NCBI GenBank assembly: GCA_015061365.1
Contig: SUWS01000002.1
Span: 22,806-86,805 of the forward strand
Source: Lentimicrobiaceae bacterium
Lineage (GTDB): Bacteria > Bacteroidota > Bacteroidia > Bacteroidales > F082
Direction of reading: 5' to 3'
Length of the DNA: 64,000 bases
The position numbers and the translations under genes were made by a program. The notes below the pieces were generated by a model, which made no database searches, was not told the origin of the DNA, and worked only from the letters and a program-made list of their open reading frames with translations. Each line of letters starts with the position of its first letter. Position 1 is the first letter of the stretch. This document shows, one piece after another, positions 4,558-51,077 of this stretch.

Positions 4558-6111
4558 ATGAAATACCCTATCGGCATACAACAATTCGAGAAGCTGCGGG
4601 AAGAGGGTTGGATCTATATAGATAAGACAGCTCATATCCATCGGCTTGCCTCGAGGGGAACATATTTCTTCCTCAGCCGACCAAGACGTTTCGGCAAGAG
4701 TTTGTTGATGTCGACGATAGAAGCGTATTTCAAAGGAAAGAGACATCTCTTTGAAGGCTTGGCGATAGAGAAGCTGGAGAAAGACTGGATTGAATATCCC
4801 GTGCTGCATATAGATCTTAATGCGGAAAGATATGCTAAAGCTGAAGAGTTGAGCAATATATTAGATACCTATCTCCGCGAGTGGGAAAAGTTATACGGCT
4901 CAGATGAAAGCAATAATGAAAGTCTTTCAAGACGTTTTCTTAATGTAATCAAATCCGCCAAAGAGAAGACCGGACGTAACGTGGTTGTTCTCATCGACGA
5001 ATACGACAAGCCTATGCTTCAAGCCATAGGCAACGAAGAACTTCAGATACAGTTCCGCAATATGCTCAAGGCGTTTTACGGGACATTGAAGAGTGCCGAC
5101 GGATATCTGAGGTTCGTGCTTCTCACAGGTGTCACCAAGTTCAGCAAGGTAAGCGTTTTCAGTGATTTGAATAATCTGAATGACATCTCAATGGACGCTG
5201 AGTATAGCGACATCTGTGGCATAACAGAAGAAGAACTGCATGAGGTATTCGATGGAGAAGTCGCCCGGTTGGCGGAGAAAAACAATCAGACAAAAGAAGA
5301 AGCTTATATAGAACTGAAGAGACGTTACGACGGCTATCATTTCAGTGAAGATTCTGTCGGTATGTACAATCCATTCAGCATACTGAATACCCTGCTGAAA
5401 AAGGTATACAGGAATTATTGGTTCAGCACGGGAACACCGACGTATTTAGTTGAACTCCTGAAACGTTTCGACTTCGATCTTCAGAACTTGTCGGGATATG
5501 AGACGACCGCAGATGCACTCGACAGTATTCAGATAAGAGTGGACAATCCCATACCAGTTCTGTACCAAAGCGGATATCTCACCATCAGCAACTATGACGA
5601 AGAGTTGGGTTTATATACGTTGGATTTTCCTAATGAGGAAGTGGAGGAGAGTTTCATAAGATTTCTCATTCCGATGTATTCACCCATTTCAGAGACCGAC
5701 TCGCCGGCATTCATCGGCAAGTTCGTCAGGGAGGTGAGAGCAGGCAAGGTGGATGATTTCATGCGCCGCCTTCAGAGTATGATGGCAGACACTCCTTACG
5801 AGATAATAAAAGACTTGGAGAACCATTATCAGAACGTCATGTTCATCCTCACGAAACTGATGGGACTTTACGTTCAGGCGGAGTACAAGACCTCCCGTGG
5901 ACGCATCGACCTTCTCATCGCGACGGACAAATACGTCTATGTCATAGAGATAAAATTAGACGGAAGCGCGGAGGACGCCCTGAGGCAGATCAACGACAAG
6001 GAATATTCACTGCCGTTTGAAGCAGGCAGCCGCCAGGTCATCAAGATAGGAGCCAAGGTCTCACGAGAAAAGAGAAACCTTGAGAACTGGATAGTTGAAA
6101 TTGAAAATTGA
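4558..6111 (+). CDS. AAA-ATPase-like / PD-(D/E)XK family protein, tandem paralogue
   Basis: 517 aa, collinear with 2905..4455. Blocks of near-identity alternate with diverged patches. Confidence 0.8.
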   Translation: MKYPIGIQQFEKLREEGWIYIDKTAHIHRLASRGTYFFLSRPRRFGKSLLMSTIEAYFKGKRHLFEGLAIEKLEKDWIEYPVLHIDLNAERYAKAEELSNILDTYLREWEKLYGSDESNNESLSRRFLNVIKSAKEKTGRNVVVLIDEYDKPMLQAIGNEELQIQFRNMLKAFYGTLKSADGYLRFVLLTGVTKFSKVSVFSDLNNLNDISMDAEYSDICGITEEELHEVFDGEVARLAEKNNQTKEEAYIELKRRYDGYHFSEDSVGMYNPFSILNTLLKKVYRNYWFSTGTPTYLVELLKRFDFDLQNLSGYETTADALDSIQIRVDNPIPVLYQSGYLTISNYDEELGLYTLDFPNEEVEESFIRFLIPMYSPISETDSPAFIGKFVREVRAGKVDDFMRRLQSMMADTPYEIIKDLENHYQNVMFILTKLMGLYVQAEYKTSRGRIDLLIATDKYVYVIEIKLDGSAEDALRQINDKEYSLPFEAGSRQVIKIGAKVSREKRNLENWIVEIEN

Positions 6112-39338: not shown

Positions 39339-41474
39339 ATGAAGATATTCCAGACAGAAGACATTCGGAACGTCGCTCTCATAGGAGCTGCTAAATCCGG
39401 TAAGACAACGCTTGCTGAAAACATGGTTTTCGAAGGTAAGCTCATCAACAGAAAAGGCACTACAGAAGGTAAAAACACAGTATCTGACTATCGTCCAATA
39501 GAAACAGAACGCGGTATATCTGTAAACGCCAGTTTGTTATACACAATCTATAACGACAAGAAAATAAATATTTTAGATACTCCAGGTTTTAGCGACTTCT
39601 CAGGCGACATCGTTGCTTGTTTGACAGCTGCTGATATGGCTGTTTTCACAGTCAACGCTCAAGCAGGTGTTGAAGCAACAACAGAAAATGCATGGAAATA
39701 CGCTACAAAAACAAACAAACCTGTAGTGTTCTTCATGAACCAATTGGATCACAGCAACGCTAATTTCGATGACACAGTACGTCAATTGAAAGAATATTTC
39801 GGCGATAAAGTTACTCCAGTTCAATTCCCAGTAGCAACAGGTGAAGGTTTCAACTCAGTCATCGACCTTATTACAATGAAGATGTTAGTCTTCAAGAATG
39901 GTAACGGTGCTCCTGAAGTACAAGACATTCCTGCTAACTTAGCAGACAAAGCTGAGGAATTACACAACGAACTCATCGAACACGCAGCTGAAGGTGACGA
40001 TGCTCTTATGGAGAAATTCTTCGAAGAAGGTACACTTTCAGAAGAAGACATGGAAAAAGGTCTCCACCTCGGTATCATCAACCGTGATATGTTCCCAGTA
40101 TTGTGTGGTGCAGCTAAATCAGGTGCCGGTGTTACACGTCTCTTAGAATTCCTTATCAACGCTTGTCCTTCACCAGCTCACGTACATACTACAAAAGCTG
40201 TAAACGGTACAGAATTCCATAACAGCACAGAAGAAGCTCCAGCAATGTTCTTCTTCAAGATCTCTAACGAACAAAACGTTGGTGACGTCGCTATGGCTCG
40301 TATCTACGGTGGTACAATCGCTGAATCACAAGATATGGTTAACCCACGTACAGGCAACAAAGAACGTATTTCTCAACTTTTGGTTTCAAACGGTAAGACA
40401 CGTGAGAGAGTTGAAAAAGCCTGCGCTGGTGATATCATCTCTACAATCAAATTGAAAGACGTTCGCGTCAACGACAGCTTGGTAGATGCTAAGATCTCTG
40501 ACACAGCATTCGAAGGCGTTCCATTCCCAGCTCCAATTTTCTCTACAGCTATCAAAGCCGTTAACTCACAAGAAGACGAAAAACTCGGCGGTATCCTCGC
40601 TGACTTCCATAAGATCGACCCAACAGTCATCACTTCAATGTCACGTGAGTTAAGACAAAATATCCTTCAATGTCAAGGTGAATATCACCTCAATACAATC
40701 AAATGGTATCTCGATAACGTACATAAAATCGCTGTTGAATTTGCAGCTCCTAAGGTTCCTTATCGCGAAACTATCACCAAGACAGCTAACGCTGACTACC
40801 GTCACAAGAAACAATCAGGTGGTTCAGGTCAGTTCGGTGAAGTCCACATGAGATTAGCTCCTTATTATGAAGGTTACACAGATCCATCAGACCTCCAAGT
40901 TCGTGGTAAAGATGAATACGATCTCCCATGGGGCGGTAAACTCATCTTCTGCAACTGTATCGTCGGTGGTTCTATCGATGCTCGTTTCATGCCAGCTATC
41001 TTGAAAGGTATCAACGAACGTTTGGAAGAAGGTCCTCTTACAGGTTCATACGCTCGCGACATCATCTGCTACATCTATGATGGTAAGATGCACCCAGTTG
41101 ACTCAAACGAAATGGCATTTAAGATCGCAGGTCGTATGGCATTCTCAGCAGCATTTAAAAACGCTGGTCCTAAGATCATGGAACCTATCTACGACTTGAC
41201 AGTTCGTATGCCAGAAGATATGATGGGCGCTGTTAACACCGACCTCCAAAGCCGTCGTGCTATCATCATGGGTATGGATGCTGACCGCAACTACCAAATC
41301 ATCCGCGCAAGAGTCCCATTGGCAGAAATGGACAGATATTCAACTTCATTGAGTTCTTTGACATCAGGCCGTGGTACATTCACAATGGAATATGCAGAAT
41401 ACGCACAAGTTCCAACTGACGTTCAAACAAAACTCTTGAAAGCTTACGAAGAAAGCAAGAAAGACGAAGATTGA
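39339..41474 (+). CDS. Elongation factor G paralogue (EF-G2-like)
   Basis: 711 aa with full EF-G domain order. G1 reads GAAKSGKTT and switch II reads DTPGFSDF (no His). Confidence 0.9.
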   Translation: MKIFQTEDIRNVALIGAAKSGKTTLAENMVFEGKLINRKGTTEGKNTVSDYRPIETERGISVNASLLYTIYNDKKINILDTPGFSDFSGDIVACLTAADMAVFTVNAQAGVEATTENAWKYATKTNKPVVFFMNQLDHSNANFDDTVRQLKEYFGDKVTPVQFPVATGEGFNSVIDLITMKMLVFKNGNGAPEVQDIPANLADKAEELHNELIEHAAEGDDALMEKFFEEGTLSEEDMEKGLHLGIINRDMFPVLCGAAKSGAGVTRLLEFLINACPSPAHVHTTKAVNGTEFHNSTEEAPAMFFFKISNEQNVGDVAMARIYGGTIAESQDMVNPRTGNKERISQLLVSNGKTRERVEKACAGDIISTIKLKDVRVNDSLVDAKISDTAFEGVPFPAPIFSTAIKAVNSQEDEKLGGILADFHKIDPTVITSMSRELRQNILQCQGEYHLNTIKWYLDNVHKIAVEFAAPKVPYRETITKTANADYRHKKQSGGSGQFGEVHMRLAPYYEGYTDPSDLQVRGKDEYDLPWGGKLIFCNCIVGGSIDARFMPAILKGINERLEEGPLTGSYARDIICYIYDGKMHPVDSNEMAFKIAGRMAFSAAFKNAGPKIMEPIYDLTVRMPEDMMGAVNTDLQSRRAIIMGMDADRNYQIIRARVPLAEMDRYSTSLSSLTSGRGTFTMEYAEYAQVPTDVQTKLLKAYEESKKDED

Positions 41475-41497
41475 TAAAATCTCCACTAAATACGAAG

Positions 41498-41530
41498 ACT
41501 CCCGCGAAGAAATTCACGGGAGTTTTTTTT
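41498..41530 (+). terminator. Rho-independent terminator
   Basis: actcccg-(12 nt)-cgggagt followed by eight T. Confidence 0.85.
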
Positions 41531-41610
41531 GTCCACTAATTGGCATGAATTTGCGCTAATATTATTAAAAAAGGTATTTTCTGAAAATTCAACGTAATAA
41601 AAATAAATGT

Positions 41611-42528
41611 ATGAATATGTCAGAAAATAGAAAAAAGAAAAGCACATTCTTTGTGTTTATGGAAGATGTCTATGTAAATTTAAAAGCATTAGGAAAAATC
41701 AGGACATCTGAGACCTACAAATCGTCATTGGATAGCTTCAGAAAGTTTAGAAAAGGTAAAGACTTGACCTTCAATAAATTTAATCATGAGATGATGATTG
41801 AATATGAAGCATATCTTAAAGCAAAAGGAATTTCAAAAAACACGTCTTCTTTTTATATGCGAACGTTGCGTGCTGTATACAACAGAGCCGTAAACAAAGG
41901 TCTCACTCTTCAGAAATATCCGTTCAAATATGTCTATACCGGCATTGACAAAACACGGAAAAGAGCAGTCTCGGTTCAGATAATGAAGCAGATTAAAAGT
42001 CTGGATTTATCATCGGAATGGAAATTAGATTTTGCGAAAGATATGTTTCTGTTTTCATTTTACACGAGAGGAATGTCATTTGTCGACATGTCATATCTTC
42101 GTAGAAAAGATTTAAGCAATGGAATATTGACCTACCGACGGCACAAGACAGGACAGCTGCTACATATAAAATGGGAAGCCTGTATGCAGGAAATTGTCAA
42201 TAAATATAAAAACGAGCAATCTACATTTCTATTACCTATTATTAATACTGATGAAGTAGAAGAGCAACGCAAGCAATATATTTATTCTGCGCATAATATT
42301 AATAGGTGTCTAAAGAAGATTGGAGCAATGTTAGGCTTATCGTTGCCATTAACGATGTATGTTGCCCGGCACACATGGGCAAGTATTGCAAAACAAAAGA
42401 ATATCCCGTTATCAGTCATCAGCGATGGGTTAGGCCATGACTCAGAATTAACAACGAGAATCTATTTGTCTTCATTGGATAATGTAGAGATAGATAAGGC
42501 TAACAGAATGATTCTTAATCTTTTATAA
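41611..42528 (+). CDS. Tyrosine site-specific recombinase (Bacteroides small integrase/invertase type)
   Basis: 305 aa. SAM-like N-terminal domain, ARHTWASIA (R-H) and LGHDSELTTRIYL (H...Y) catalytic motifs. Confidence 0.9.
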   Translation: MNMSENRKKKSTFFVFMEDVYVNLKALGKIRTSETYKSSLDSFRKFRKGKDLTFNKFNHEMMIEYEAYLKAKGISKNTSSFYMRTLRAVYNRAVNKGLTLQKYPFKYVYTGIDKTRKRAVSVQIMKQIKSLDLSSEWKLDFAKDMFLFSFYTRGMSFVDMSYLRRKDLSNGILTYRRHKTGQLLHIKWEACMQEIVNKYKNEQSTFLLPIINTDEVEEQRKQYIYSAHNINRCLKKIGAMLGLSLPLTMYVARHTWASIAKQKNIPLSVISDGLGHDSELTTRIYLSSLDNVEIDKANRMILNLL

Positions 42529-42541
42529 GCTCTTATCTGTA

Positions 42542-42701
42542 ACATCTCTTCCCAAGAGATTTATAACTACTTGCAAAGTAAATAAAAATATTGATATAAA
42601 ATACATTATATATAAAATTTTTTTTCTGACACTTTTTAACTAATCTTAAAGACCTGATTTTCAATAATATAACTTCAAAATATTCTCTTGGGAAGAGATG
42701 T
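42542..42701. promoter_or_regulatory. Candidate invertible DNA segment: perfect 18-bp inverted repeats flanking 124 bp
   Basis: acatctcttcccaagaga (42542-42559) and tctcttgggaagagatgt (42684-42701) are exact reverse complements. The left repeat starts 14 nt after the recombinase stop and the right repeat ends 94 nt before ATG 42796. Confidence 0.5.
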
Positions 42702-42795
42702 ACTCGGGAAATGCATTAATTTTTTATTAAATATTATTTGATTTCTCTATCATAGCCCAAAATAAATTAAACAAACTCTACTAAAATAAAATAAT

Positions 42796-43593
42796 ATGAA
42801 ATTAATAATTCCAAACGGATGTTTAGCAGCAGAAAATGATGCTGCTGCAAAAATCAGAGCAAGTCTCGCTAAAGATCTTAAAGATGGTAAACCTGTAGAA
42901 ATTGCTTCTTCAGGAGATGTCATGGGACAAAATGGTGAACAAAAGAAACTTGAAATCCAACCTGGCAAATTGGCAGCAGAAAATGATGCGGCTGCACGAA
43001 TACGAGCAAGTCTCGCTAAAGATCTTAAAGACGGTAAACCTGTAGAAATTGCTTCTTCAGGAGATGTTATGGGACAAAATGGTGAACAAAAGAAACTTGA
43101 AATTCAACCTGGTAAATTGGCAAACTATCAATGGTATGAAAGAGAGCCTCAAAGACTCCGAGGTGAAATTGAAGGAATGAATGAGTTCTTTCCTCAATTT
43201 AAATTGTATAAAATGAATGACGGACGATATTATTGGAGAGGAACTTTGCGTCCAAATGTTTTGCCTAATGGTTGGGCTTGGGAAGTTGCTGCAATTTACA
43301 ATAATGACCACCCAGCGCCACAAATGGGAGGTTCGGTGCGTGTAGTTCTTTTAAATCCTGATATTGATACAGTGATCAATGCATTGGGATGGAGACCTCA
43401 TCATCTTTTATATTGTCCTACAGATGGTACATATCTTTGTACAACACGCGCACAAGATATGAGTTATGGTACTCAATACGAAACTACAGCTGTTCAAACT
43501 TTAACTTGGGCAGTTAAATGGTTAACTGCTCTTGAGTTGGTATTGACTGGTGATTTATCTAAAGAATTGTTTAATAATCCTGTTGGAATATAA
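42796..43593 (+). CDS. Two tandem 49-aa modules fused to an E2/UBC-like domain (tentative)
   Basis: The C-terminal 155 aa show an E2-like order: a helix (QRLRGEIEGMNEFF), YYWRGTL, EVAAIYNNDHPAPQ...VRVVLLNP, then PHHLLYCPTDGTYLC (HPN-like position plus a G-x-Y-L-C candidate catalytic Cys), then a helix (TLTWAVKWLTALE). Confidence 0.5.
   Translation: MKLIIPNGCLAAENDAAAKIRASLAKDLKDGKPVEIASSGDVMGQNGEQKKLEIQPGKLAAENDAAARIRASLAKDLKDGKPVEIASSGDVMGQNGEQKKLEIQPGKLANYQWYEREPQRLRGEIEGMNEFFPQFKLYKMNDGRYYWRGTLRPNVLPNGWAWEVAAIYNNDHPAPQMGGSVRVVLLNPDIDTVINALGWRPHHLLYCPTDGTYLCTTRAQDMSYGTQYETTAVQTLTWAVKWLTALELVLTGDLSKELFNNPVGI
42826..43119 (+). repeat. Tandem in-frame duplication, 2 x 147 bp
   Basis: Units 42826-42972 and 42973-43119 differ at only a handful of positions. 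Each encodes AAENDAAA(K/R)IRASLAKDLKDGKPVEIASSGDVMGQNGEQKKLEIQPGKL. Confidence 0.95.
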
Positions 43594-43601
43594 GTTGTGT
43601 T

Positions 43602-44303
43602 ATGATTTCACACGTAGTTTTTACCAAAAGAGCATTTAATGCAATTGTTACAGAGACAATAGATAAGAATCCTGTAGAAACTGGCGGTATCTTTATAGGA
43701 TATTTGCTAAATAATGGGATTGCCATAGTTGTAGAAACAATTCCCCCAGGCATTAGAACAATAAATCAACGTGCATATTTCGAATATGATGCTGATTTTG
43801 TCAATTACCTATCTAACGTTATTGCAAAACAATATGTAGGCAACCTTCATGTATTAGGATTATGGCACCGCCATCCAGGAAGTATGGATACATTCTCAAT
43901 GACAGATAATGGAACCAATATCAAGTTCGCCGTAAACAATGGAAATTACGGAGCTATATCTGCATTGGTAAATTGTGACCCTAAATTGCGATTAACAATG
44001 TATCATGTTAATCCAGATTGTACTTATACACCTATTGAATGGAGTGTCGATGACGGTATAATTCCAGAAGATCTATTAAAACTTCATTATGAAGATGCGT
44101 CAAATCTTCCAATTTTAGGTGAGCACTCTTATAATATGAGTCCAGCTACCTCTGTATCACCCAACAACAATAACAGCGGTAGTGAGCATATTGTGGATTC
44201 TATTTGTGAATCTCCAGAAACAGGATCTAGCAAATATACAATTGCAGATGCAATAGATGACTTTTCTAAAATAATTCGCAAACTCATTAATAATGCAAAT
44301 TGA
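43602..44303 (+). CDS. JAB/MPN (JAMM) metallopeptidase
   Basis: NPVETGGIFIGY (Glu) plus GLWHRHPGSMDTFSMTD, an exact H-x-H-x7-S-x2-D JAMM motif. Confidence 0.85.
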   Translation: MISHVVFTKRAFNAIVTETIDKNPVETGGIFIGYLLNNGIAIVVETIPPGIRTINQRAYFEYDADFVNYLSNVIAKQYVGNLHVLGLWHRHPGSMDTFSMTDNGTNIKFAVNNGNYGAISALVNCDPKLRLTMYHVNPDCTYTPIEWSVDDGIIPEDLLKLHYEDASNLPILGEHSYNMSPATSVSPNNNNSGSEHIVDSICESPETGSSKYTIADAIDDFSKIIRKLINNAN

Positions 44304-44395
44304 GTAGTCTTTCTATACTAATTTATCATAATAACATTTCCGATATAGATTTAAGTAAAATGGAATTAGTTTACAAACTATAATACTTGTCAAAT

Positions 44396-45829
44396 ATGAA
44401 TTCACACATTATAGAATCTGCAAACTTGTATTTAAAAACAAAGCCAGAAGGCAAAATTATTTTCCCTTCACAAATTTATGAAGAAAAATACATCGGTCCA
44501 CTCAATGGCTATTATGTTCCCGAAACAAATATTTTTAATGTCATTCCTACAGATACTCTTCATATAAATAATGGAAAGTGTTCATTGTTAGGATTCATAT
44601 TACCATTAAATCCTCTAAGATATATTGAAGAGAAAACGCCAGAAAAAGATCCCCTTTCAATAATTAAAGAAAAAATGGGATTAAGCAATGAACATAAAAA
44701 AACATTAACAATACAACCATCAAAACCAATTCCTTTTGATGGAGATGGAATAGCTATTAACAATGACATTTCATTAAGCATCAAAGAAAAATTCATCCCA
44801 GAATTAATACGATTATTAAAATACGAAAGTTTTTTAATTGATTCAATACAAGAATGGGTGGAATATATATTTAAATCAAGGGAAGAAGACTTACTATTAG
44901 GATATTGGGAAGATAATCGCATATACTTTCATCATATAAAATGGCATTTTATAAATAAATACATAAATCCAACTCCATTGATACAAGAAACTTATTCTTT
45001 AAAATTAGATGTATTTTCACGGAATACTGGTATTCTTGAGTCTGATATAATGCTAACTAAAGGTGCTGTATTTATTGGATGTGGTTCCGTGGGTAGTTTA
45101 TTTGCTTTAGAATTGGCTCGTGCTGGTGTTGGTCGCTTTATGCTGATAGATAGCGATATTTTAGGATATCATAATATTTGCAGACATCAGTGTGGAATAT
45201 TTGATGTTGGTAGATATAAAACAGATGCAGTAAAAGATAGAATCCTGCAAATAAATCCTTATGCAGAAGTTGTTACGTATAATATGAGAATTCAAGAAGT
45301 TCCATTAGATGATTTGATGAAATTTTGTGATGTAAATACTATTGTTATTGGTGGAGCTGATAATCGAGAAGGTGATTTGTATGCTAATAGCATTGCACAA
45401 CATGTGGGTATGCCATTTATGTCTATTGGATGTTGGGAAAGAGCATTTGCTGGTGAAATATTTTATTGTTTGCCTACAGGTATGCCAACATATAAAGATT
45501 TCATGGAAGTTACAGGACATATGTCTGCACGAGTGACTCAAAATAGAAGATTTTACACAACTGAAGCAGAGCTTGAAAAAGTATCTTTTGAACCAGGTAT
45601 ATCAGTAGATATAAATTTTGTTACAACTATTGCTGTAAAACTAGCCATTGATTTGCTCAATAGAGATAATGAAAATTATACCCAAAGGTTATTACCTCAT
45701 TTGACACAATATACATTGGTATGCAATACGAATAACACAAAAGTCGGAGGAGAAATGGCAGAGATATTCTCTTATCCATTGCAGGTAACTACAAGTATTA
45801 TTGTACCATACTCAAATAAGGAAGAATAA
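44396..45829 (+). CDS. E1-like ThiF/MoeB-family adenylyltransferase with an unknown N-terminal region of about 215 aa
   Basis: FIGCGSVGSLFALELARAGVGRFMLIDSDILGYHNICRHQ and GGADNREGDLYAN match the Rossmann GxGxxG, D.D...N..R and DN..R motifs of ThiF. ATG at 44396 preferred to TTG 44387. Confidence 0.85.
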   Translation: MNSHIIESANLYLKTKPEGKIIFPSQIYEEKYIGPLNGYYVPETNIFNVIPTDTLHINNGKCSLLGFILPLNPLRYIEEKTPEKDPLSIIKEKMGLSNEHKKTLTIQPSKPIPFDGDGIAINNDISLSIKEKFIPELIRLLKYESFLIDSIQEWVEYIFKSREEDLLLGYWEDNRIYFHHIKWHFINKYINPTPLIQETYSLKLDVFSRNTGILESDIMLTKGAVFIGCGSVGSLFALELARAGVGRFMLIDSDILGYHNICRHQCGIFDVGRYKTDAVKDRILQINPYAEVVTYNMRIQEVPLDDLMKFCDVNTIVIGGADNREGDLYANSIAQHVGMPFMSIGCWERAFAGEIFYCLPTGMPTYKDFMEVTGHMSARVTQNRRFYTTEAELEKVSFEPGISVDINFVTTIAVKLAIDLLNRDNENYTQRLLPHLTQYTLVCNTNNTKVGGEMAEIFSYPLQVTTSIIVPYSNKEE

Positions 45830-45830
45830 T

Positions 45831-46472
45831 ATGGCTGAATTTGATCAATATGGGCGTCTAAAAAATCCGAATTTTCGCCAGTCTCGTCCTGTTTCTAGCT
45901 TTGTACCATCAGCAACATATAGCAGAGAATCTGGGTGGCAAAGATTCAATGGCTTTATAAGTGATATAGGGCAATGGTTAAGAGACAATTGCAGTGCTCT
46001 AGCTAACAATATATCAATTGGAGGATTTTTTATTGCATGTATAGCAATTATAATAGGAGCCATCTATACATGGATTGATGATGGTTTTGTGGAATTTATT
46101 ATATATGCTATTGTCGCAGCTCTTGTTATGTATTTTGGAGGTTTGTTAGTAACAGGATTAATGATGATAGTATTAAACATCCCAATATACATATTGGGGA
46201 TTATATTTCATAGTGCATATTCTCTGATAATAACAATACTATTAGCATTAGGTATAATAATATATTGTAATTATGATAACAATAGTTATTCATCTTCTCA
46301 TAATAAGTATACACCTATAGCAGAAGAAACTGTCAAAACAAATACAGAAAATACACCTGCTACCACCCAATATGTATGTACTGCAAAATCAACGTTGAAC
46401 GTACGTAGATCTCCTGATATTAATTCACAAGGATTAACAGAGGTTTTTTCGGGTCTTTATTCGACAAATTAA
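45831..46472 (+). CDS. Small membrane protein (about 4 TM) with a low-complexity tail
   Basis: The ATG lies 2 nt after the E1-like stop. Hydrophobic stretches FFIACIAIIIGAIY, IIYAIVAALVMYFGGLLVTGLMMIVL, ILGIIFHSAYSLIITILLALGIIIY. Confidence 0.55.
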   Translation: MAEFDQYGRLKNPNFRQSRPVSSFVPSATYSRESGWQRFNGFISDIGQWLRDNCSALANNISIGGFFIACIAIIIGAIYTWIDDGFVEFIIYAIVAALVMYFGGLLVTGLMMIVLNIPIYILGIIFHSAYSLIITILLALGIIIYCNYDNNSYSSSHNKYTPIAEETVKTNTENTPATTQYVCTAKSTLNVRRSPDINSQGLTEVFSGLYSTN

Positions 46473-46507
46473 GAAATCTATTTGGGTAAAATTAAGGAGA
46501 AATAATC

Positions 46508-46903
46508 ATGGACTTAGGAATAATAGGAATAATTATCGCTATTGTAATAGTTGTAATAATTGTAATATCATTAAGAGCCTTACGCGAAAAGTATGTGTGG
46601 ATGGATGGTGTTGTAGCTTTTATTATGATTGGAGCAGTTATAGCAGGTTGGATTATTGGTGGATTTTGGATGGGTGTAGCGACATTTATTGGTTCATTAT
46701 TGGTTATAGGTTTATTATTCGGTTTAGGAAATGATTATACTGAGGTCCGGATAGATGTTCATACTACAGCTAAGATTAAATGCCCTCAGTGTAACTATGG
46801 CGGAATGGATATAATTTCTAGTAGATATGATTCAGAGCAAAAAGTTACAAGTATAGATGCTAAGTGTAAACGTTGTGGTAAAGTAACTAATTTTATAGGT
46901 TAA
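46508..46903 (+). CDS. Small membrane protein (about 3 TM) with a C-terminal CxxC...CxxC zinc ribbon, ending in Gly
   Basis: GIIGIIIAIVIVVIIVI, VVAFIMIGAVIAGWIIGGFWMGVATFIGSLLVIGLLFGL, then KCPQCNYGG...KCKRCGKVTNFIG*. Confidence 0.55.
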   Translation: MDLGIIGIIIAIVIVVIIVISLRALREKYVWMDGVVAFIMIGAVIAGWIIGGFWMGVATFIGSLLVIGLLFGLGNDYTEVRIDVHTTAKIKCPQCNYGGMDIISSRYDSEQKVTSIDAKCKRCGKVTNFIG

Positions 46904-46934
46904 TAAATTATAGTTTAATTTTAATATAGTAATC

Positions 46935-48101
46935 ATGCAGAAAATGTGTTTTGTGATGTTAACATATAAATGCAACCTCAATTGCATCTATTGTTATCAA
47001 AAGTATAAAACTTCACAAAGAATGACTTTAGAAACAGCCAAGTCTGTGGTTTCAAGGGAAGTTCAGTTAGCCAGAGAGTCTAATAATAAGGATGGTGTAA
47101 GATTTGACCTATTTGGTGGTGAGCCATTGCTTCAATTTAATCTGATTAAAGAATTATGTGCTTGGATATGGGAGACTATTACAGATGTGAAAGTTGATAT
47201 TTACATAACAACCAATGGAACACTGCTTGATGATGAGAAAAAAGAATGGTTTAAGTCTCATAAAGAAAGAATCAATCTTATTATGTCTGTCGATGGCAAA
47301 GATGATGTACAAGTAGGTAATAGAGGCTGTCAGCTCTCCGATTTACCTATAAAGTGGGTAATAGACACATTGCCAAATTATCTGTTAAGTATGACTATTT
47401 CGAGAAAATCTCTTGCGAATTTTGCAGATGATCTCATATATTTTCATGAACAGAATTATAGCATAGATGCAAAACCAGCCCAAGGTGAAGATTGGCGGGA
47501 CGGAGACGGTCAAATATATGAAAATCAATTGTATAAACTATCAGATTATTATTTGGCACACCCTGAGATAAGACCAATGTACATCTTCAAGGAAAGCTCA
47601 TATGTTCATTTGCTTAACAATGAGCCAAACGAAAAATATGGCAAAACATGCGGTGTCGCAGAAGATCTTGTAGCTTATGATGTAGAAGGTCGATTGTTTC
47701 CTTGTCATCATTTTCTGCCTAATGTAAACGGTAAAACCGATATACTGGATTATCTGAACAAGCTTGATTTCTCTGATTCATCAAAATTTGTTGATGAGGA
47801 ATGTATAAAGTGTGATATATTGAAACTTTGCAGGACCTGTTCTGCTCGCAATTTCAATGAAAGAGGAGATGTTAGTCGGAGGGATAAACGAGCCTGTCAA
47901 ATAATGCTTGCTGAAGCTAAAGTAGTAAGCCAGTTCCAAATTAAGAAACTGATGCAAAATAAAGATAACTTAAGTGCACACGATTTATTGAACCTAAAGG
48001 CCGCTATCAAGTGTCAACAGCTCTGTAGTGACTTTGAGAAGAAATTTTGTGCACATAAAAAACAAAATGGAGAAGCCGATAGCCATAAAGTGGAGGCATA
48101 A
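46935..48101 (+). CDS. Radical SAM enzyme with a SPASM/twitch C-terminal domain (anSME-like peptide maturase)
   Basis: YKCNLNCIYCY (CxxxCxxC). C-terminal CGVAEDLVAYDVEGRLFPC (C...G-x4-C) and CIKCDILKLCRTC (CxxCx5CxxC). Confidence 0.85.
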   Translation: MQKMCFVMLTYKCNLNCIYCYQKYKTSQRMTLETAKSVVSREVQLARESNNKDGVRFDLFGGEPLLQFNLIKELCAWIWETITDVKVDIYITTNGTLLDDEKKEWFKSHKERINLIMSVDGKDDVQVGNRGCQLSDLPIKWVIDTLPNYLLSMTISRKSLANFADDLIYFHEQNYSIDAKPAQGEDWRDGDGQIYENQLYKLSDYYLAHPEIRPMYIFKESSYVHLLNNEPNEKYGKTCGVAEDLVAYDVEGRLFPCHHFLPNVNGKTDILDYLNKLDFSDSSKFVDEECIKCDILKLCRTCSARNFNERGDVSRRDKRACQIMLAEAKVVSQFQIKKLMQNKDNLSAHDLLNLKAAIKCQQLCSDFEKKFCAHKKQNGEADSHKVEA

Positions 48102-48120
48102 TTTATTAATACATTTCATT

Positions 48121-48249
48121 ATGTTAAACAATGAATTGCTTATGGAAGCTGCCGCATTGGTAAACTCAAATGAGGCAAAGATCGCTCAACTTCAAGCTGA
48201 TGTTGAATGCGCATCTGGTTGTGGAATATGTGGTTACGGTAGTAACTAA
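48121..48249 (+). CDS. Candidate RiPP precursor peptide (42 aa)
   Basis: MLNNELLMEAAALVNSNEAKIAQLQADVECASGCGICGYGSN has a helical leader-like N-terminus and a Cys/Gly-rich C-terminal 13 aa. It starts 19 nt after the SPASM enzyme stop. It is the internal ATG of track ORF 48028..48249. Confidence 0.5.
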   Translation: MLNNELLMEAAALVNSNEAKIAQLQADVECASGCGICGYGSN

Positions 48250-48264
48250 TATTCTTTAAACACT

Positions 48265-48299
48265 GTAGGCTGACTAAAAATACTTTTTGGTCAGCCTAC
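48265..48299 (+). promoter_or_regulatory. Perfect 10-bp stem-loop directly after the precursor ORF
   Basis: gtaggctgac-(15 nt)-gtcagcctac with no T-tract after it. Possibly a partial terminator or an mRNA stabiliser. Confidence 0.45.
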
Positions 48300-48332
48300 T
48301 CATTTATCAAGGAAATTGAATATATTGACTTT

Positions 48333-50132
48333 ATGCTAAATTCAAACAACTCACAAGAAAACAAGAAAGTAGATGCATTACTTGTTCAATTATCTGCAAA
48401 TCCATATTTTGACATGCTTTCATCGTATAGCATAGGACAATTAGGATTATATTATTTAGCCGAATATGCAGATAGATTTGGTTGCCTTGTAAAGGTTAAG
48501 TATTACAATTCATTTGATGAAGTCTCAATGTTACTTCCTGAATTAATACGAAATACATCTTGTCGTATTATAGGATTTTATGTAGATAGTGATAATATTT
48601 GGTCATTAAGAGCATTAATGCCCAAATTATATCAATGTTGTCCCAATATTAACATCATTATAGGTGGGCCTCAGGTAACAGGTGACCCACATGGAACTAT
48701 GCAATTAATTCCCAATGTTACTTGCGGTGTTATCGGGGAAGGTGAAGTTCCATTTCTTAAACTATTACAATCAGATACACTTAATGAAGATGTGTTAAAT
48801 TGTATTGATGGTCTGATTTATAATTCCACTAATGGATTAATAACAACAAAACCTCAAAAACAAGATCCAAATATTGATGAATTCGGTTATCCTAAAAGAG
48901 AAAAATATTGCTTAGATCCAAACAAAGTAACATTCTCACAATTAATAACAGGAAGAGGTTGTATGGGACAATGCGCATTCTGTTACGAAGGCGGAAAAGA
49001 ACATACTAACTTACGTGTACGCAACGTAGATTCTTGTTTAGAGGAAATTGATTATTTAGTAGATACTTACGGAGTTAAGTATATTAATATAGTGGATGAC
49101 ACATTCATTTTAAATAGGAAACGAACGGAGGAGTTTTGTAATAGATTGATCAATAAATATAATGGTAGTATTAAATGGTACTGTGAAGCAAGAGCTGATA
49201 TATTGTCTAAAAACATTGATATTCTGCCATTATTAAAAAAAGCAGGATTAGTTAAAATACAATTAGGAGGCGAGTCTGGATGCCAAGAAATTTTAGATGC
49301 ATACAAAAAAGGGGTAACTATAAAGCAATTAGAGTTTGTTACACAAAAGATAGTAGATGCAGGTATTCCATATATCTATGCCAACTTCATAATAGGTGGA
49401 GCATTTGAGACAGAATCAACTTTTAACCGGACATTAAACTTCGCTAAAAAACTAATGCGTACCGCACCTGGTCACGTTGAAGTTAGTTCATCGGTCTTTA
49501 CTCCAACACCAGGTTCTCCAATGTATAATAATCCAGAAGAGTATGGTTTGAAGATAATAGATAAGAGAAGCATAAGAGGAGCTAATTGTTCTTTTGTATT
49601 TGCAGAAACCGAACAACTGAATCAGTATAAGATTTGGCAATTACGTAATAGATTTAACAATGAAATAAAAAATGAATACGCTTCATTATTAGATGATATA
49701 TCACTTGAACAGTTAAAAAATATATTCTATCTATCAACAAAATTCTCTATAGACACACCATGGTCAAATCTGCTAAAAAGTAAGGCACATTATAGAAATT
49801 ATATAGAACCTTTAGTAAGAGGCGGCTTCTATTCTTTTAGCGAAATACCTATCGACAATATATTTTCTGCTATTCCTTTAAGAACCACTCATCTAAGTTC
49901 TGATGGAGTAGCATTTTATAGGATTAAACGGTCAGGTGAATATGTAAAAAACAGTAATTTAGAAAATGCTCTGATCACATTATCCGCAGGAAAATTAACA
50001 TTCTTGGATATTTTTAATATGATAAAATCTAATCCTGCTTTTATTACAAGTAGGACCGATATACTTGATGAATGCCTATCTATATATAGAGAATTTGAAC
50101 GTGAATTTTCTGTTGTATGGAAAAAAATTTAA
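48333..50132 (+). CDS. B12-binding-domain radical SAM enzyme (class B type)
   Basis: N-terminal Rossmann-like B12-domain region, then ITGRGCMGQCAFCYEG (CxxxCxxC). Confidence 0.8.
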   Translation: MLNSNNSQENKKVDALLVQLSANPYFDMLSSYSIGQLGLYYLAEYADRFGCLVKVKYYNSFDEVSMLLPELIRNTSCRIIGFYVDSDNIWSLRALMPKLYQCCPNINIIIGGPQVTGDPHGTMQLIPNVTCGVIGEGEVPFLKLLQSDTLNEDVLNCIDGLIYNSTNGLITTKPQKQDPNIDEFGYPKREKYCLDPNKVTFSQLITGRGCMGQCAFCYEGGKEHTNLRVRNVDSCLEEIDYLVDTYGVKYINIVDDTFILNRKRTEEFCNRLINKYNGSIKWYCEARADILSKNIDILPLLKKAGLVKIQLGGESGCQEILDAYKKGVTIKQLEFVTQKIVDAGIPYIYANFIIGGAFETESTFNRTLNFAKKLMRTAPGHVEVSSSVFTPTPGSPMYNNPEEYGLKIIDKRSIRGANCSFVFAETEQLNQYKIWQLRNRFNNEIKNEYASLLDDISLEQLKNIFYLSTKFSIDTPWSNLLKSKAHYRNYIEPLVRGGFYSFSEIPIDNIFSAIPLRTTHLSSDGVAFYRIKRSGEYVKNSNLENALITLSAGKLTFLDIFNMIKSNPAFITSRTDILDECLSIYREFEREFSVVWKKI

Positions 50133-51077
50133 ATGTTAAAACACATTATTAAACTAATGCAATATACAGACACTTTACATATAGTTAAAGATACTCTTTT
50201 GGATGAGGAGCATCTCAGGATGATACAAGAGTTTACACAAAAAACAGCTTCCAACACAGCTTTTAGTTTTTGGCGTGAAGCAGATTTCTGGGAGTATTTG
50301 GCAATAGGTCTATCATTTTTAGCGATCGTGTTAGCTGTTGTTACTGCAATCTTACAATGGAAAACTGAAAGAAATACAAGAATGTCTTTAAGTATGAAAA
50401 ACCAAGTTTATGAATCTATATTCAAGTTATTACTCAATGATCTTTATAGAATACAATGTGATATTTTATCACTGCAAATTATTTTAATAGAAAATGATTT
50501 TCAATCATATCCGACAAAACGATATCTAAAAAAAATGATGATTAAATTTGATGATTCTAATCTTGATTCTTTTTTAGTTGTCTTTAATAAAGAAGATAAA
50601 GGCGAAGCTGAAGAGCATTATCTTAAAATGAGGGAAATCAATAGGTTAATTCATAATTATAATGTTAACCTTGAAATATTAATGGAACATTTAAAAGACT
50701 CATCAGTAGATACAAGCACCAAATTATTTGATTTCTCAATCATAAATAATAATATATGTTTTCTAAGTAAAAAGATAATTCAAACTGCTGAATCTATTTA
50801 TGGAAAGAATTCTGATGTTGGTACTTCTCTGCTGCATTATGTAAAAAAAGCTTTAGAATTTTATCAATCAAGTGAGACTAATATAACCTCTATAGATAGT
50901 TATACAAACCTAAAAAAATACGAAGATATTATCAATCCAGTTCTTAACAACTATTTCGAATATACCAATACCATATCTACAAATGAAGCAATGTTATTGG
51001 CATATAGACTAATATCAAACGAAATAGACAAGAACGATTCTGATGTAAAAAACAACTTAATAAGGTTTAAGACATAA
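50133..51077 (+). CDS. Hypothetical single-pass membrane protein, helical
   Basis: The ATG abuts the upstream stop. One TM (FWEYLAIGLSFLAIVLAVVTAILQW). No recognisable motif. Confidence 0.45.
   Translation: MLKHIIKLMQYTDTLHIVKDTLLDEEHLRMIQEFTQKTASNTAFSFWREADFWEYLAIGLSFLAIVLAVVTAILQWKTERNTRMSLSMKNQVYESIFKLLLNDLYRIQCDILSLQIILIENDFQSYPTKRYLKKMMIKFDDSNLDSFLVVFNKEDKGEAEEHYLKMREINRLIHNYNVNLEILMEHLKDSSVDTSTKLFDFSIINNNICFLSKKIIQTAESIYGKNSDVGTSLLHYVKKALEFYQSSETNITSIDSYTNLKKYEDIINPVLNNYFEYTNTISTNEAMLLAYRLISNEIDKNDSDVKNNLIRFKT

Follow-up and report, generated by a model that had tools for sequence, protein, structure and literature searches.

Invertible promoters are a well-known source of cell-to-cell heterogeneity in gut Bacteroidales, where they mostly serve capsules, fimbriae and surface proteins. 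A candidate of this kind lies in a 64-kb stretch of contig SUWS01000002.1 from a Lentimicrobiaceae bacterium (the whole stretch is referred to below as the window). It consists of an A+T-rich segment enclosed by inverted repeats and is located between the gene of a 305-aa tyrosine recombinase and an operon that encodes E2-like, JAB and E1-like proteins, followed by genes like those for a peptide that is made by ribosomes and modified after translation (RiPP). An earlier interpretation made from the DNA letters alone (the sequence-only reading) proposed a phase-variable switch, and the comparative data presented here support it: the element is probably a tyrosine-recombinase inverton that works as a phase-variation switch. 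The type of switch is already well known; this member of it has a clearly defined site structure and an unusual cargo.

The closest described systems are those of the tyrosine site-specific recombinases (Tsr) of Bacteroides fragilis and Phocaeicola vulgatus, in which, as proven experimentally, a tsr gene lies directly upstream of the inverted repeat (IR)-flanked promoter of a fimbrial or exopolysaccharide operon (PMC12940148, PMC13139388). The sequence-only reading had appealed to an established Bacteroides mechanism, and the layout proven for the Tsr recombinases is indeed the one seen here. Likened by architecture, the locus resembles the switches of B. fragilis Tsr15, Tsr16 and BF2766 (with IVp-I/II) and of P. 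vulgatus BVU2677/BVU2684: the recombinase gene is upstream of the IR-flanked promoter region, and the orientation of the segment turns a co-oriented downstream operon ON or OFF. Moreover, two relatives of the window recombinase (on contigs L112 and L078) precede Mfa-like fimbrial operons, the classic Tsr cargo. The differences concern site and cargo. The BF2766/BVU2684 group uses the motif TACTTNNNANGTAANNGAA (PMC12940148), whereas the window carries TCTCTT-nnn-AAGAGA and thus falls outside that group. The cargo of the Tsr switches consists of surface structures, whereas that of the window is an E1/E2/JAB module together with a RiPP-like radical-SAM operon. The host differs as well, being an uncultured member of the Paludibacteraceae from the ruminant gut.

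The fimS switch of Escherichia coli, inverted by FimB and FimE, is similar in its neighbouring tyrosine recombinases, short inverted repeats, outward promoter and predominant OFF state. It spans 314 bp, has 9-bp repeats, needs IHF and Lrp and is operated by two recombinases with directional bias, whereas the window has a single adjacent recombinase, a 124-nt segment, palindromic sites with a 3-nt asymmetric centre and a putative Bacteroidetes-type promoter. The Mpi capsule promoters of B. fragilis are likewise IR-flanked and invertible and make their operons phase variable (PMC13139388). However, Mpi is a serine recombinase acting globally from a distance, whereas the candidate enzyme of the window is a tyrosine recombinase encoded in cis.

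A further comparison is with rAID-1, in which a conserved XerD-like recombinase stands at the 5' end of a variable, co-oriented array of low-GC genes (10.1101/471110; PMC12247911). Compared by description, the window shares with rAID-1 an array led by a recombinase, a motif after the recombinase stop codon and strain-variable cargo, but its cargo is not made up of immunity genes. Homologues of the rAID recombinase above 50% identity have been reported as restricted to rAID (10.1101/471110; PMC12247911), whereas homologues of the window recombinase at more than 60% identity occur in fimbrial contexts. No paper linking rAID to inversion was found in the literature, nor one describing an inverton before an E1/E2/JAB or RiPP cluster.

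Inversion of the segment in orthologous loci

About 60 related contigs from ruminant and other gut metagenomes (designated by L numbers) were collected by exact-protein look-ups and one genome scan. All of them have the gene order PfkB, EF-G-like gene, recombinase, repeats and cargo, and the closest named genome is a yak-cecum Paludibacteraceae metagenome-assembled genome (MAG). In what follows, ON and OFF denote the orientations in which the putative promoter of the segment would read towards or away from the downstream operon.

Inversion of the segment in orthologous loci was directly seen in the assemblies. The contigs L118 (OFF) and L119 (ON) derive from different samples and encode an identical recombinase protein (P0022, 80% identical to that of the window); flanks and sites agree completely between the two, and the interior of L119 matches that of L118 once it is reversed and complemented, with 0/123 mismatches. 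The same relation was found between L099 and L106, which again share one recombinase protein (0/39 mismatches; L106 is ON). In the third pair, L087, with a 91% identical recombinase and in the flipped (ON) state, matches the interior of L084 at 121/125 positions as the reverse complement, as against 79 in the forward direction. In all three pairs, the difference in orientation begins and ends exactly at the repeats. The occurrence of both orientations, for which the sequence-only reading had proposed to look, is thus observed in orthologous loci and from assemblies.

Nine contigs from separate runs (L017, L086, L095, L098, L102, L104, L105, L120, and L121), one of which (L095) is as long as 78.6 kb, end at the last base common to both arms. 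Because the shared 24-bp repeat is shorter than the k of the assemblers, a contig stop at this point corresponds to a branch in the assembly graph with both junctions present in the reads. In addition, the fold-back contig L103 and the chimera L100 each join an OFF-type to an ON-type junction. In these orthologous lineages, both orientations coexist within samples. The contigs L006-L008 were left out of the inversion evidence; their breaks lie at a single-nucleotide polymorphism inside the segment, away from the repeat. Public assemblies alone therefore reveal the flipping of this switch in ruminant-gut Paludibacteraceae.

Structure and covariation of the recombination sites

An inverted-repeat search returned the same perfect (18/18 bp) repeat at the same coordinates as the sequence-only reading, with arms ACATCTCTTCCCAAGAGA (left site, IRL) and TCTCTTGGGAAGAGATGT (right site, IRR) and a spacer of 124 nt. 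The distances given earlier also proved correct: the left arm starts at position +14 from the recombinase stop codon, leaving 13 nt between 42528 and the arm, and 94 nt separate the right arm from the ATG of the E2 gene at 42796. No further copy of the 18-mer was found in the window at up to 3 mismatches (chance expectation 0.08), and when the 267-nt intergenic region was shuffled 300 times, perfect inverted repeats reached 14 nt at most. The repeat is beyond chance, since it is unique in the window and the shuffles reach only 14 nt.

A property that the sequence-only reading had not mentioned is that each arm is itself palindromic. A single arm has the 7-3-7 structure ATCTCTT-CCC-AAGAGAT, and the two arms are distinguished solely by the direction of the central triplet. 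The repeat motif of the window locus reads nTCTCTTnnnAAGAGAn, and the core TCTCTT-nnn-AAGAGA occurs only twice within the window. Across the relatives the repeat keeps a constant position, 13-17 nt past the recombinase stop codon, and the triplet differs between lineages: it is CCC/GGG in the window, L004 and L020, TTC/GAA in L084, L091 and L107, TAC/GTA in L087, and TTT/AAA in L018, L085, L099 and L118. In an alignment of eight lineages whose recombinases are 77-100% identical, the two sites were 100% complementary over the 15-nt core in 8/8, and the three central columns showed paired, two-sided changes in 2, 2, and 3 sequences, respectively, with zero unpaired cells.

The site of a tyrosine recombinase is formed by two symmetric half-sites round a short asymmetric crossover region, which must match between the partner sites and sets their relative orientation. 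Symmetric half-sites with a covarying asymmetric centre are the pattern that the established mechanism of this family would predict for a core site. A palindrome of this kind, with its covarying 3-nt centre, can be searched for directly in genomes.

Predicted promoter and mechanism of switching

A TAnnTTTG-like 8-mer that reads outward and ends 13-15 nt inside one of the sites was present in 11/11 family members examined. The match to the Bacteroidetes -7 consensus is perfect in the closest relative, L004 (TACTTTTG; 97% identical recombinase, same CCC site), L112 (TATATTTG) and L108 (TAACTTTG); 7/8 positions agree in the window (TTACTTTG), in the L084, L091, L099 and L087 types (TTTCTTTG), in L018 (TTTATTTG) and in L078 (TAAATTCG). 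At the opposite end of the segment, no TTTG-type box was found in the family members examined. The box aims at the downstream operon in L087, L119, L108 and L078, and back at the recombinase gene in the window and most other assemblies. As assembled, the window switch would consequently be OFF for the cluster if the box serves as a promoter.

The sequence-only reading had located the TTTG strings of the segment on the minus strand only, which was confirmed, and had named two candidate boxes among them. The first, tttactttg, stood the comparison, its spacing from the site being constant throughout the family. The second, atattttgaag, which lies beside IRR and reads inward, is not conserved in the relatives and was rejected. 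The OFF assignment, with inversion predicted to aim the box at 42796, holds in view of the conserved outward position. It had further been stated that no consensus promoter is visible in the fixed leader that joins IRR to the ATG of E2. This is correct insofar as no exact TAnnTTTG is present there or anywhere between 39257 and 43432, but the leader does contain the near-match TATTATTTG. The leader is not conserved in L084-type loci, where it measures about 45 nt. A scan of the region for sigma-70 and terminator consensus sequences did not outperform shuffled sequence and detected no terminator within the segment, and Rfam returned nothing for 41400-43000.

From these data the following mechanism is proposed. 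Each repeat would be a complete site made of the palindromic half-sites nTCTCTT and AAGAGAn and an asymmetric 3-nt centre, with the two sites facing each other. The adjacent recombinase would synapse the sites and exchange strands within the shared centre, so that the 124-nt segment, bearing a single outward-reading Bacteroidetes-type promoter, would flip. In the OFF state this promoter would drive leftward transcription that enters the 3' end of the recombinase gene in antisense. In the ON state the box would be moved to ~42662-42669 on the plus strand, and the transcript would begin a few nt ahead of IRR, cross IRR and the 94-nt leader and continue into the genes for the E2, JAB, E1 and membrane proteins and on into the RiPP-like radical-SAM genes. 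After inversion, the junctions of a CCC-type locus (marked here by a slash) would read …CCCAAGAGA/ATATTTTGAAG… and …TTATAAA/TCTCTTGGG…, or …CTTCCCAAGAGA/ATATTTTGAAGTTAT… or …AGTAGTTATAAA/TCTCTTGGGAAGAG….

State of the switch in the window lineage and alternative explanations

Several observations weigh against this mechanism in the window itself. All of the CCC-type contigs with the 18-bp repeat (14/14; the window, L001-L003, L020, L022, L004-L010, and L122) are OFF, and the repeat is not a break point in any of them, assemblies giving the majority state only. Evidence of inversion was obtained for 13/32 contigs in the other lineages vs 0/14 of the CCC type (Fisher p = 0.004, with non-independent samples). 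The arms of the window type are without the inner extension of 6-7 nt (GTATAAT) that is common to the arms of the flipping lineages. Among the retrieved contigs none was ON before an E2/JAB/E1 block, the sole hint of flipping there being L017, a contig that stops at the repeat. The box of the window agrees with the consensus at only 7/8 positions and has no clear TTTG at -33, and orientation-independent expression could arise from the near-consensus box in the leader or from transcripts reading through out of the recombinase gene. Finally, a single line of evidence, namely that the site core and the recombinase family occur together, underlies the presumption that the adjacent recombinase is the flipping enzyme, and Tsr enzymes of P. 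vulgatus also act on distant sites (PMC12940148).

A first alternative is that the switch of the window lineage is decayed or locked, flipping no longer or very rarely, with an operon that is permanently silent or driven by another promoter. The uniform OFF state of unbroken CCC-type contigs beside the evidence of inversion elsewhere, the shorter shared repeat (18 bp in the window type vs 24 bp in the other lineages) and the near-match box in the fixed leader all point in this direction. Nevertheless, both sites are still perfect and the open reading frame (ORF) of the recombinase is intact. L078 keeps the same CCC site beside a 60% identical recombinase in another organism, so that this type of site is arguably functional. 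Moreover, an assembly shows no more than the majority orientation, and the OFF state prevails in the flipping lineages as well. On balance, a locked switch appears unlikely, and the window's own copy may flip as its orthologs do.

A second alternative is an orientation-dependent terminator: transcription from the recombinase promoter would be stopped at a run of eight T residues (T8) and its hairpin in the assembled orientation and set free by flipping. The T8 run is invariant in the eight aligned lineages and is preceded by weak A/U hairpins with RNA folding z-scores of -1.9 and -2.5. However, these hairpins, made of A/U pairs only, barely exceed shuffled sequences, and the terminator consensus scan found none at this place. 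The model also leaves unexplained why a TAnnTTTG box is kept 13-15 nt from the site in relatives whose interiors are otherwise unalignable. It was demoted because the z-scores are only marginal, and we regard it as very unlikely as the principal mechanism, although termination and an invertible promoter are not mutually exclusive. The T8 run may serve as terminator of the recombinase transcript in the OFF state or, as A8 in the ON state, as an UP-like A-tract.

It is still less probable, to the point of being hardly credible, that the repeats mark the end of a mobile element or act as a capture site like those of integrons or rAID, used for insertion and excision of cargo and not for switching. 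The cargo to the right of IRR does vary, since the block from E2 to the membrane protein is present or absent from a boundary ~10-50 nt from this site and the cargo of L091 is unrelated; in rAID-1, too, variable genes of one orientation accompany a Bacteroidales tyrosine recombinase, and a conserved motif lies on its 3' side (10.1101/471110). Against this, inversion was directly observed. The repeated intergenic motifs of rAID-1 are absent: the two copies of the core in the window are those of the segment, and neither the distal end of the optional block nor the gaps between cargo genes contain a third copy. Nor is the GC skew found, the GC content of the cargo (32.5%) being close to that of the rest of the window (35%). 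The 18-mer is not dispersed either. A scan of a metagenome collection that does not include the window locus yielded 61 matches, which are single chance copies except in L078, the only informative contig; a metagenome scan for two sites separated by a gap (15+15 nt) gave 0 matches. Contigs carrying the window locus do exist at JGI. A miniature inverted-repeat transposable element (MITE) or other dispersed repeat, which would have undermined the sequence-only reading, was excluded by the lack of another copy in the window and by the unrelated, single nature of all metagenome matches other than the recombinase-linked pair of L078.

The recombinase and its relatives

In its C-terminal part the window recombinase has RHTW, GH and nucleophile Y motifs that align with those of XerA (4a8e/5hxy). 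At the Arg-I column of the alignment with archaeal XerA 4a8e the window enzyme has a serine, and an arginine is located two residues upstream (YTRGMSF, residues ~150-156). An atypical Arg-I is a feature of IntDOT-like Bacteroides enzymes. The position of the HxxR histidine is occupied by a tyrosine (MYVARH).

More than 8000 relatives of the recombinase at 63% identity or above were found across Bacteroidales, and to judge from their sequences the family is a general Bacteroidales invertase group. The site core is kept beside recombinases that are only 60-67% identical and that stand upstream of fimbrial operons. In L078, an identical pair of the 18-mer, in inverted orientation, surrounds a 60% identical recombinase gene plus 155 nt and is followed by DUF3575-like and Mfa-like fimbrial genes; no other metagenome contig has the 18-mer of the window twice. 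As the invertase gene of L078 is inside the repeats (269-1440), it would flip together with the 155-nt promoter region.

The sites next to the 66-67% identical recombinases of L112 and L108-L111 are of the type TCTCTT-TAT-AAGAGA. In L112 (67% identical recombinase) they read TCTCTTTATAAGAGAAGT … ACTTCTCTTATAAAGAGA, lie 615 nt apart and precede a DUF3575/DUF5119/Mfa-like operon. L108-L111 have the same core beside a 402-aa form of the recombinase (66% identical), and one of these contigs stops at the site. In L108 (5246-5470), L109, L110 and L111 the site is single or tandem-double on each side, with an 8-nt spacer (GGTTGCAT/ATGCAACC), and the number of sites as well as the right-hand flank vary between the assemblies. 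This suggests a multi-site, shufflon-like arrangement.

Among more distant relatives, a related pair of CTTTCTATAAAAGAAA was found in L088 (Rikenellaceae, 55% identical recombinase). No recognisable site was present in L089 (341-1222, 50% identical recombinase, a Muribaculaceae MAG, directly upstream of rpsL) or in L090 (48%). Judged by these sequences, the lower limit of the site-bearing group seems to lie between 50 and 55% identity.

Cargo genes and their variation

The features of the locus are given in Table 1. The genes downstream of the segment (42796-51077) are all on the plus strand and tightly spaced.

Table 1. Features of the switch, the recombinase gene and the downstream genes (window coordinates)
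Feature	Position	Strand	Evidence or remark
Tyrosine site-specific recombinase, 305 aa, presumed invertase	41611-42528	+	Pfam Phage_int_SAM_5 2.8e-20, Phage_integrase 6.3e-08
Left recombination site (IRL)	42542-42559		Core TCTCTT-CCC-AAGAGA 42545-42559; 7-3-7 palindrome 42544-42560
Invertible A+T-rich segment, 124 nt	42560-42683		Orthologous segments exact or near-exact reverse complements between assemblies
Putative Bacteroidetes -7 box TTACTTTG, 7/8 of TAnnTTTG	42574-42581	-	End 14 nt from site core; predicted OFF for cluster
Invariant T8 run (A8 when flipped)	42618-42625	+	8-lineage alignment; ~45 nt upstream of box
Right recombination site (IRR)	42684-42701		Core TCTCTT-GGG-AAGAGA 42684-42698
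Fixed leader, IRR to E2 start codon	42702-42795	+	Near-match TATTATTTG, no exact TAnnTTTG
E2-like protein, N-terminal 2 x 49-aa tandem repeat	42796-43593	+	PADLOC E2 models 1.8e-10
JAB/JAMM peptidase	43602-44303	+	Pfam Prok-JAB; PADLOC JAB 2.8e-13
E1-like ThiF-family adenylyltransferase	44396-45829	+	Pfam ThiF 8.7e-25; PADLOC E1-E2 models
Multi-pass membrane protein, 213 aa	45831-46472	+	Last gene of optional block
Small membrane protein	46508-46903	+	Conserved cargo
SPASM radical-SAM maturase	46935-48101	+	Pfam/NCBIfam matches; weak PapB-family match
Cys-rich precursor peptide, 42 aa, MLNNELLMEAAALVNSNEAKIAQLQADVECASGCGICGYGSN	48121-48249	+	Identical in L018 (6810-6938)
B12-binding radical-SAM enzyme	48333-50132	+	Pfam/NCBIfam matches
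314-aa protein, no assigned function	50133-51077	+	Conserved cargo

Domains of E1, E2 and JAB type are all present in the cargo (Pfam ThiF and Prok-JAB; PADLOC E2, JAB and E1-E2), and this combination of a conjugation module with a RiPP-like radical-SAM operon is unusual. No ORF between 42796 and 51077 gave a family match to a ubiquitin-like or CD-NTase partner in Pfam, PADLOC or NCBIfam. The tandem repeat of the E2-like protein is encoded at 42826-43122 in units of 147 nt (49 aa), each ending in ..QPGK. As the operon yielded no ubiquitin-like gene of its own, it may be speculated that the repeated unit is a conjugated or processed moiety. In orthologues with the same recombinase, the number of units is two in L013 (266 aa, 1971-2771) and one in L012 (219 aa, 5133-5792), and the scaffold L005 has Ns at this repeat. 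In L020, an identical locus, the E1 gene was called with 477 aa.

The block 42702-46434, which covers E2, JAB, E1 and the membrane protein, is optional. It is missing from L087, L099, L018 and L118, whose sequences resume at window position 46435. In the block-less loci, IRR is followed by ~40 nt and by the final 37 nt of the gene for the membrane protein, after which the RiPP-like operon begins (L087 6081-6121, L099 4083-4123), so that in L018, L087, L099 and L118 the RiPP-like block (46508-51077 in the window) comes straight after IRR. L018, which shares the identical precursor peptide, has a recombinase 79% identical to that of the window. L091-L093 carry wholly different, unrelated cargo. 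The conserved cargo is the RiPP-like radical-SAM module, and the E2/JAB/E1 genes are a dispensable insert. Since the cargo varies between loci, the switch belongs to the chromosomal site and its recombinase and not to the ubiquitin-like module.

A broader interpretation can be offered tentatively, and taken as a whole it is possible but doubtful. The recombinase and switch might act as an "expression dock" fixed at one conserved place in the chromosome, next to the PfkB and EF-G-like genes that precede it, with cargo modules being swapped behind it: the RiPP operon alone, the RiPP operon after an E1/E2/JAB module with a copy-number-variable 49-aa E2 repeat, or unrelated genes. A ubiquitination-like system and a peptide natural product might then be co-expressed as bet-hedging in a minority of cells, and TCTCTT-nnn-AAGAGA, with its 3-nt asymmetric centre, might represent an undescribed specificity group of Bacteroidales invertases. 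If expression is truly phase variable, bulk cultures and metatranscriptomes would mostly find such systems silent.

Upstream of the recombinase, the window carries the PfkB kinase gene and the EF-G-like gene. The three assemblies of the window's strain (L001-L003) all start 555-626 nt ahead of the recombinase, within the 3' portion of the EF-G-like gene, which hints at a second feature there that breaks assemblies, either strain variation or a paralogue.

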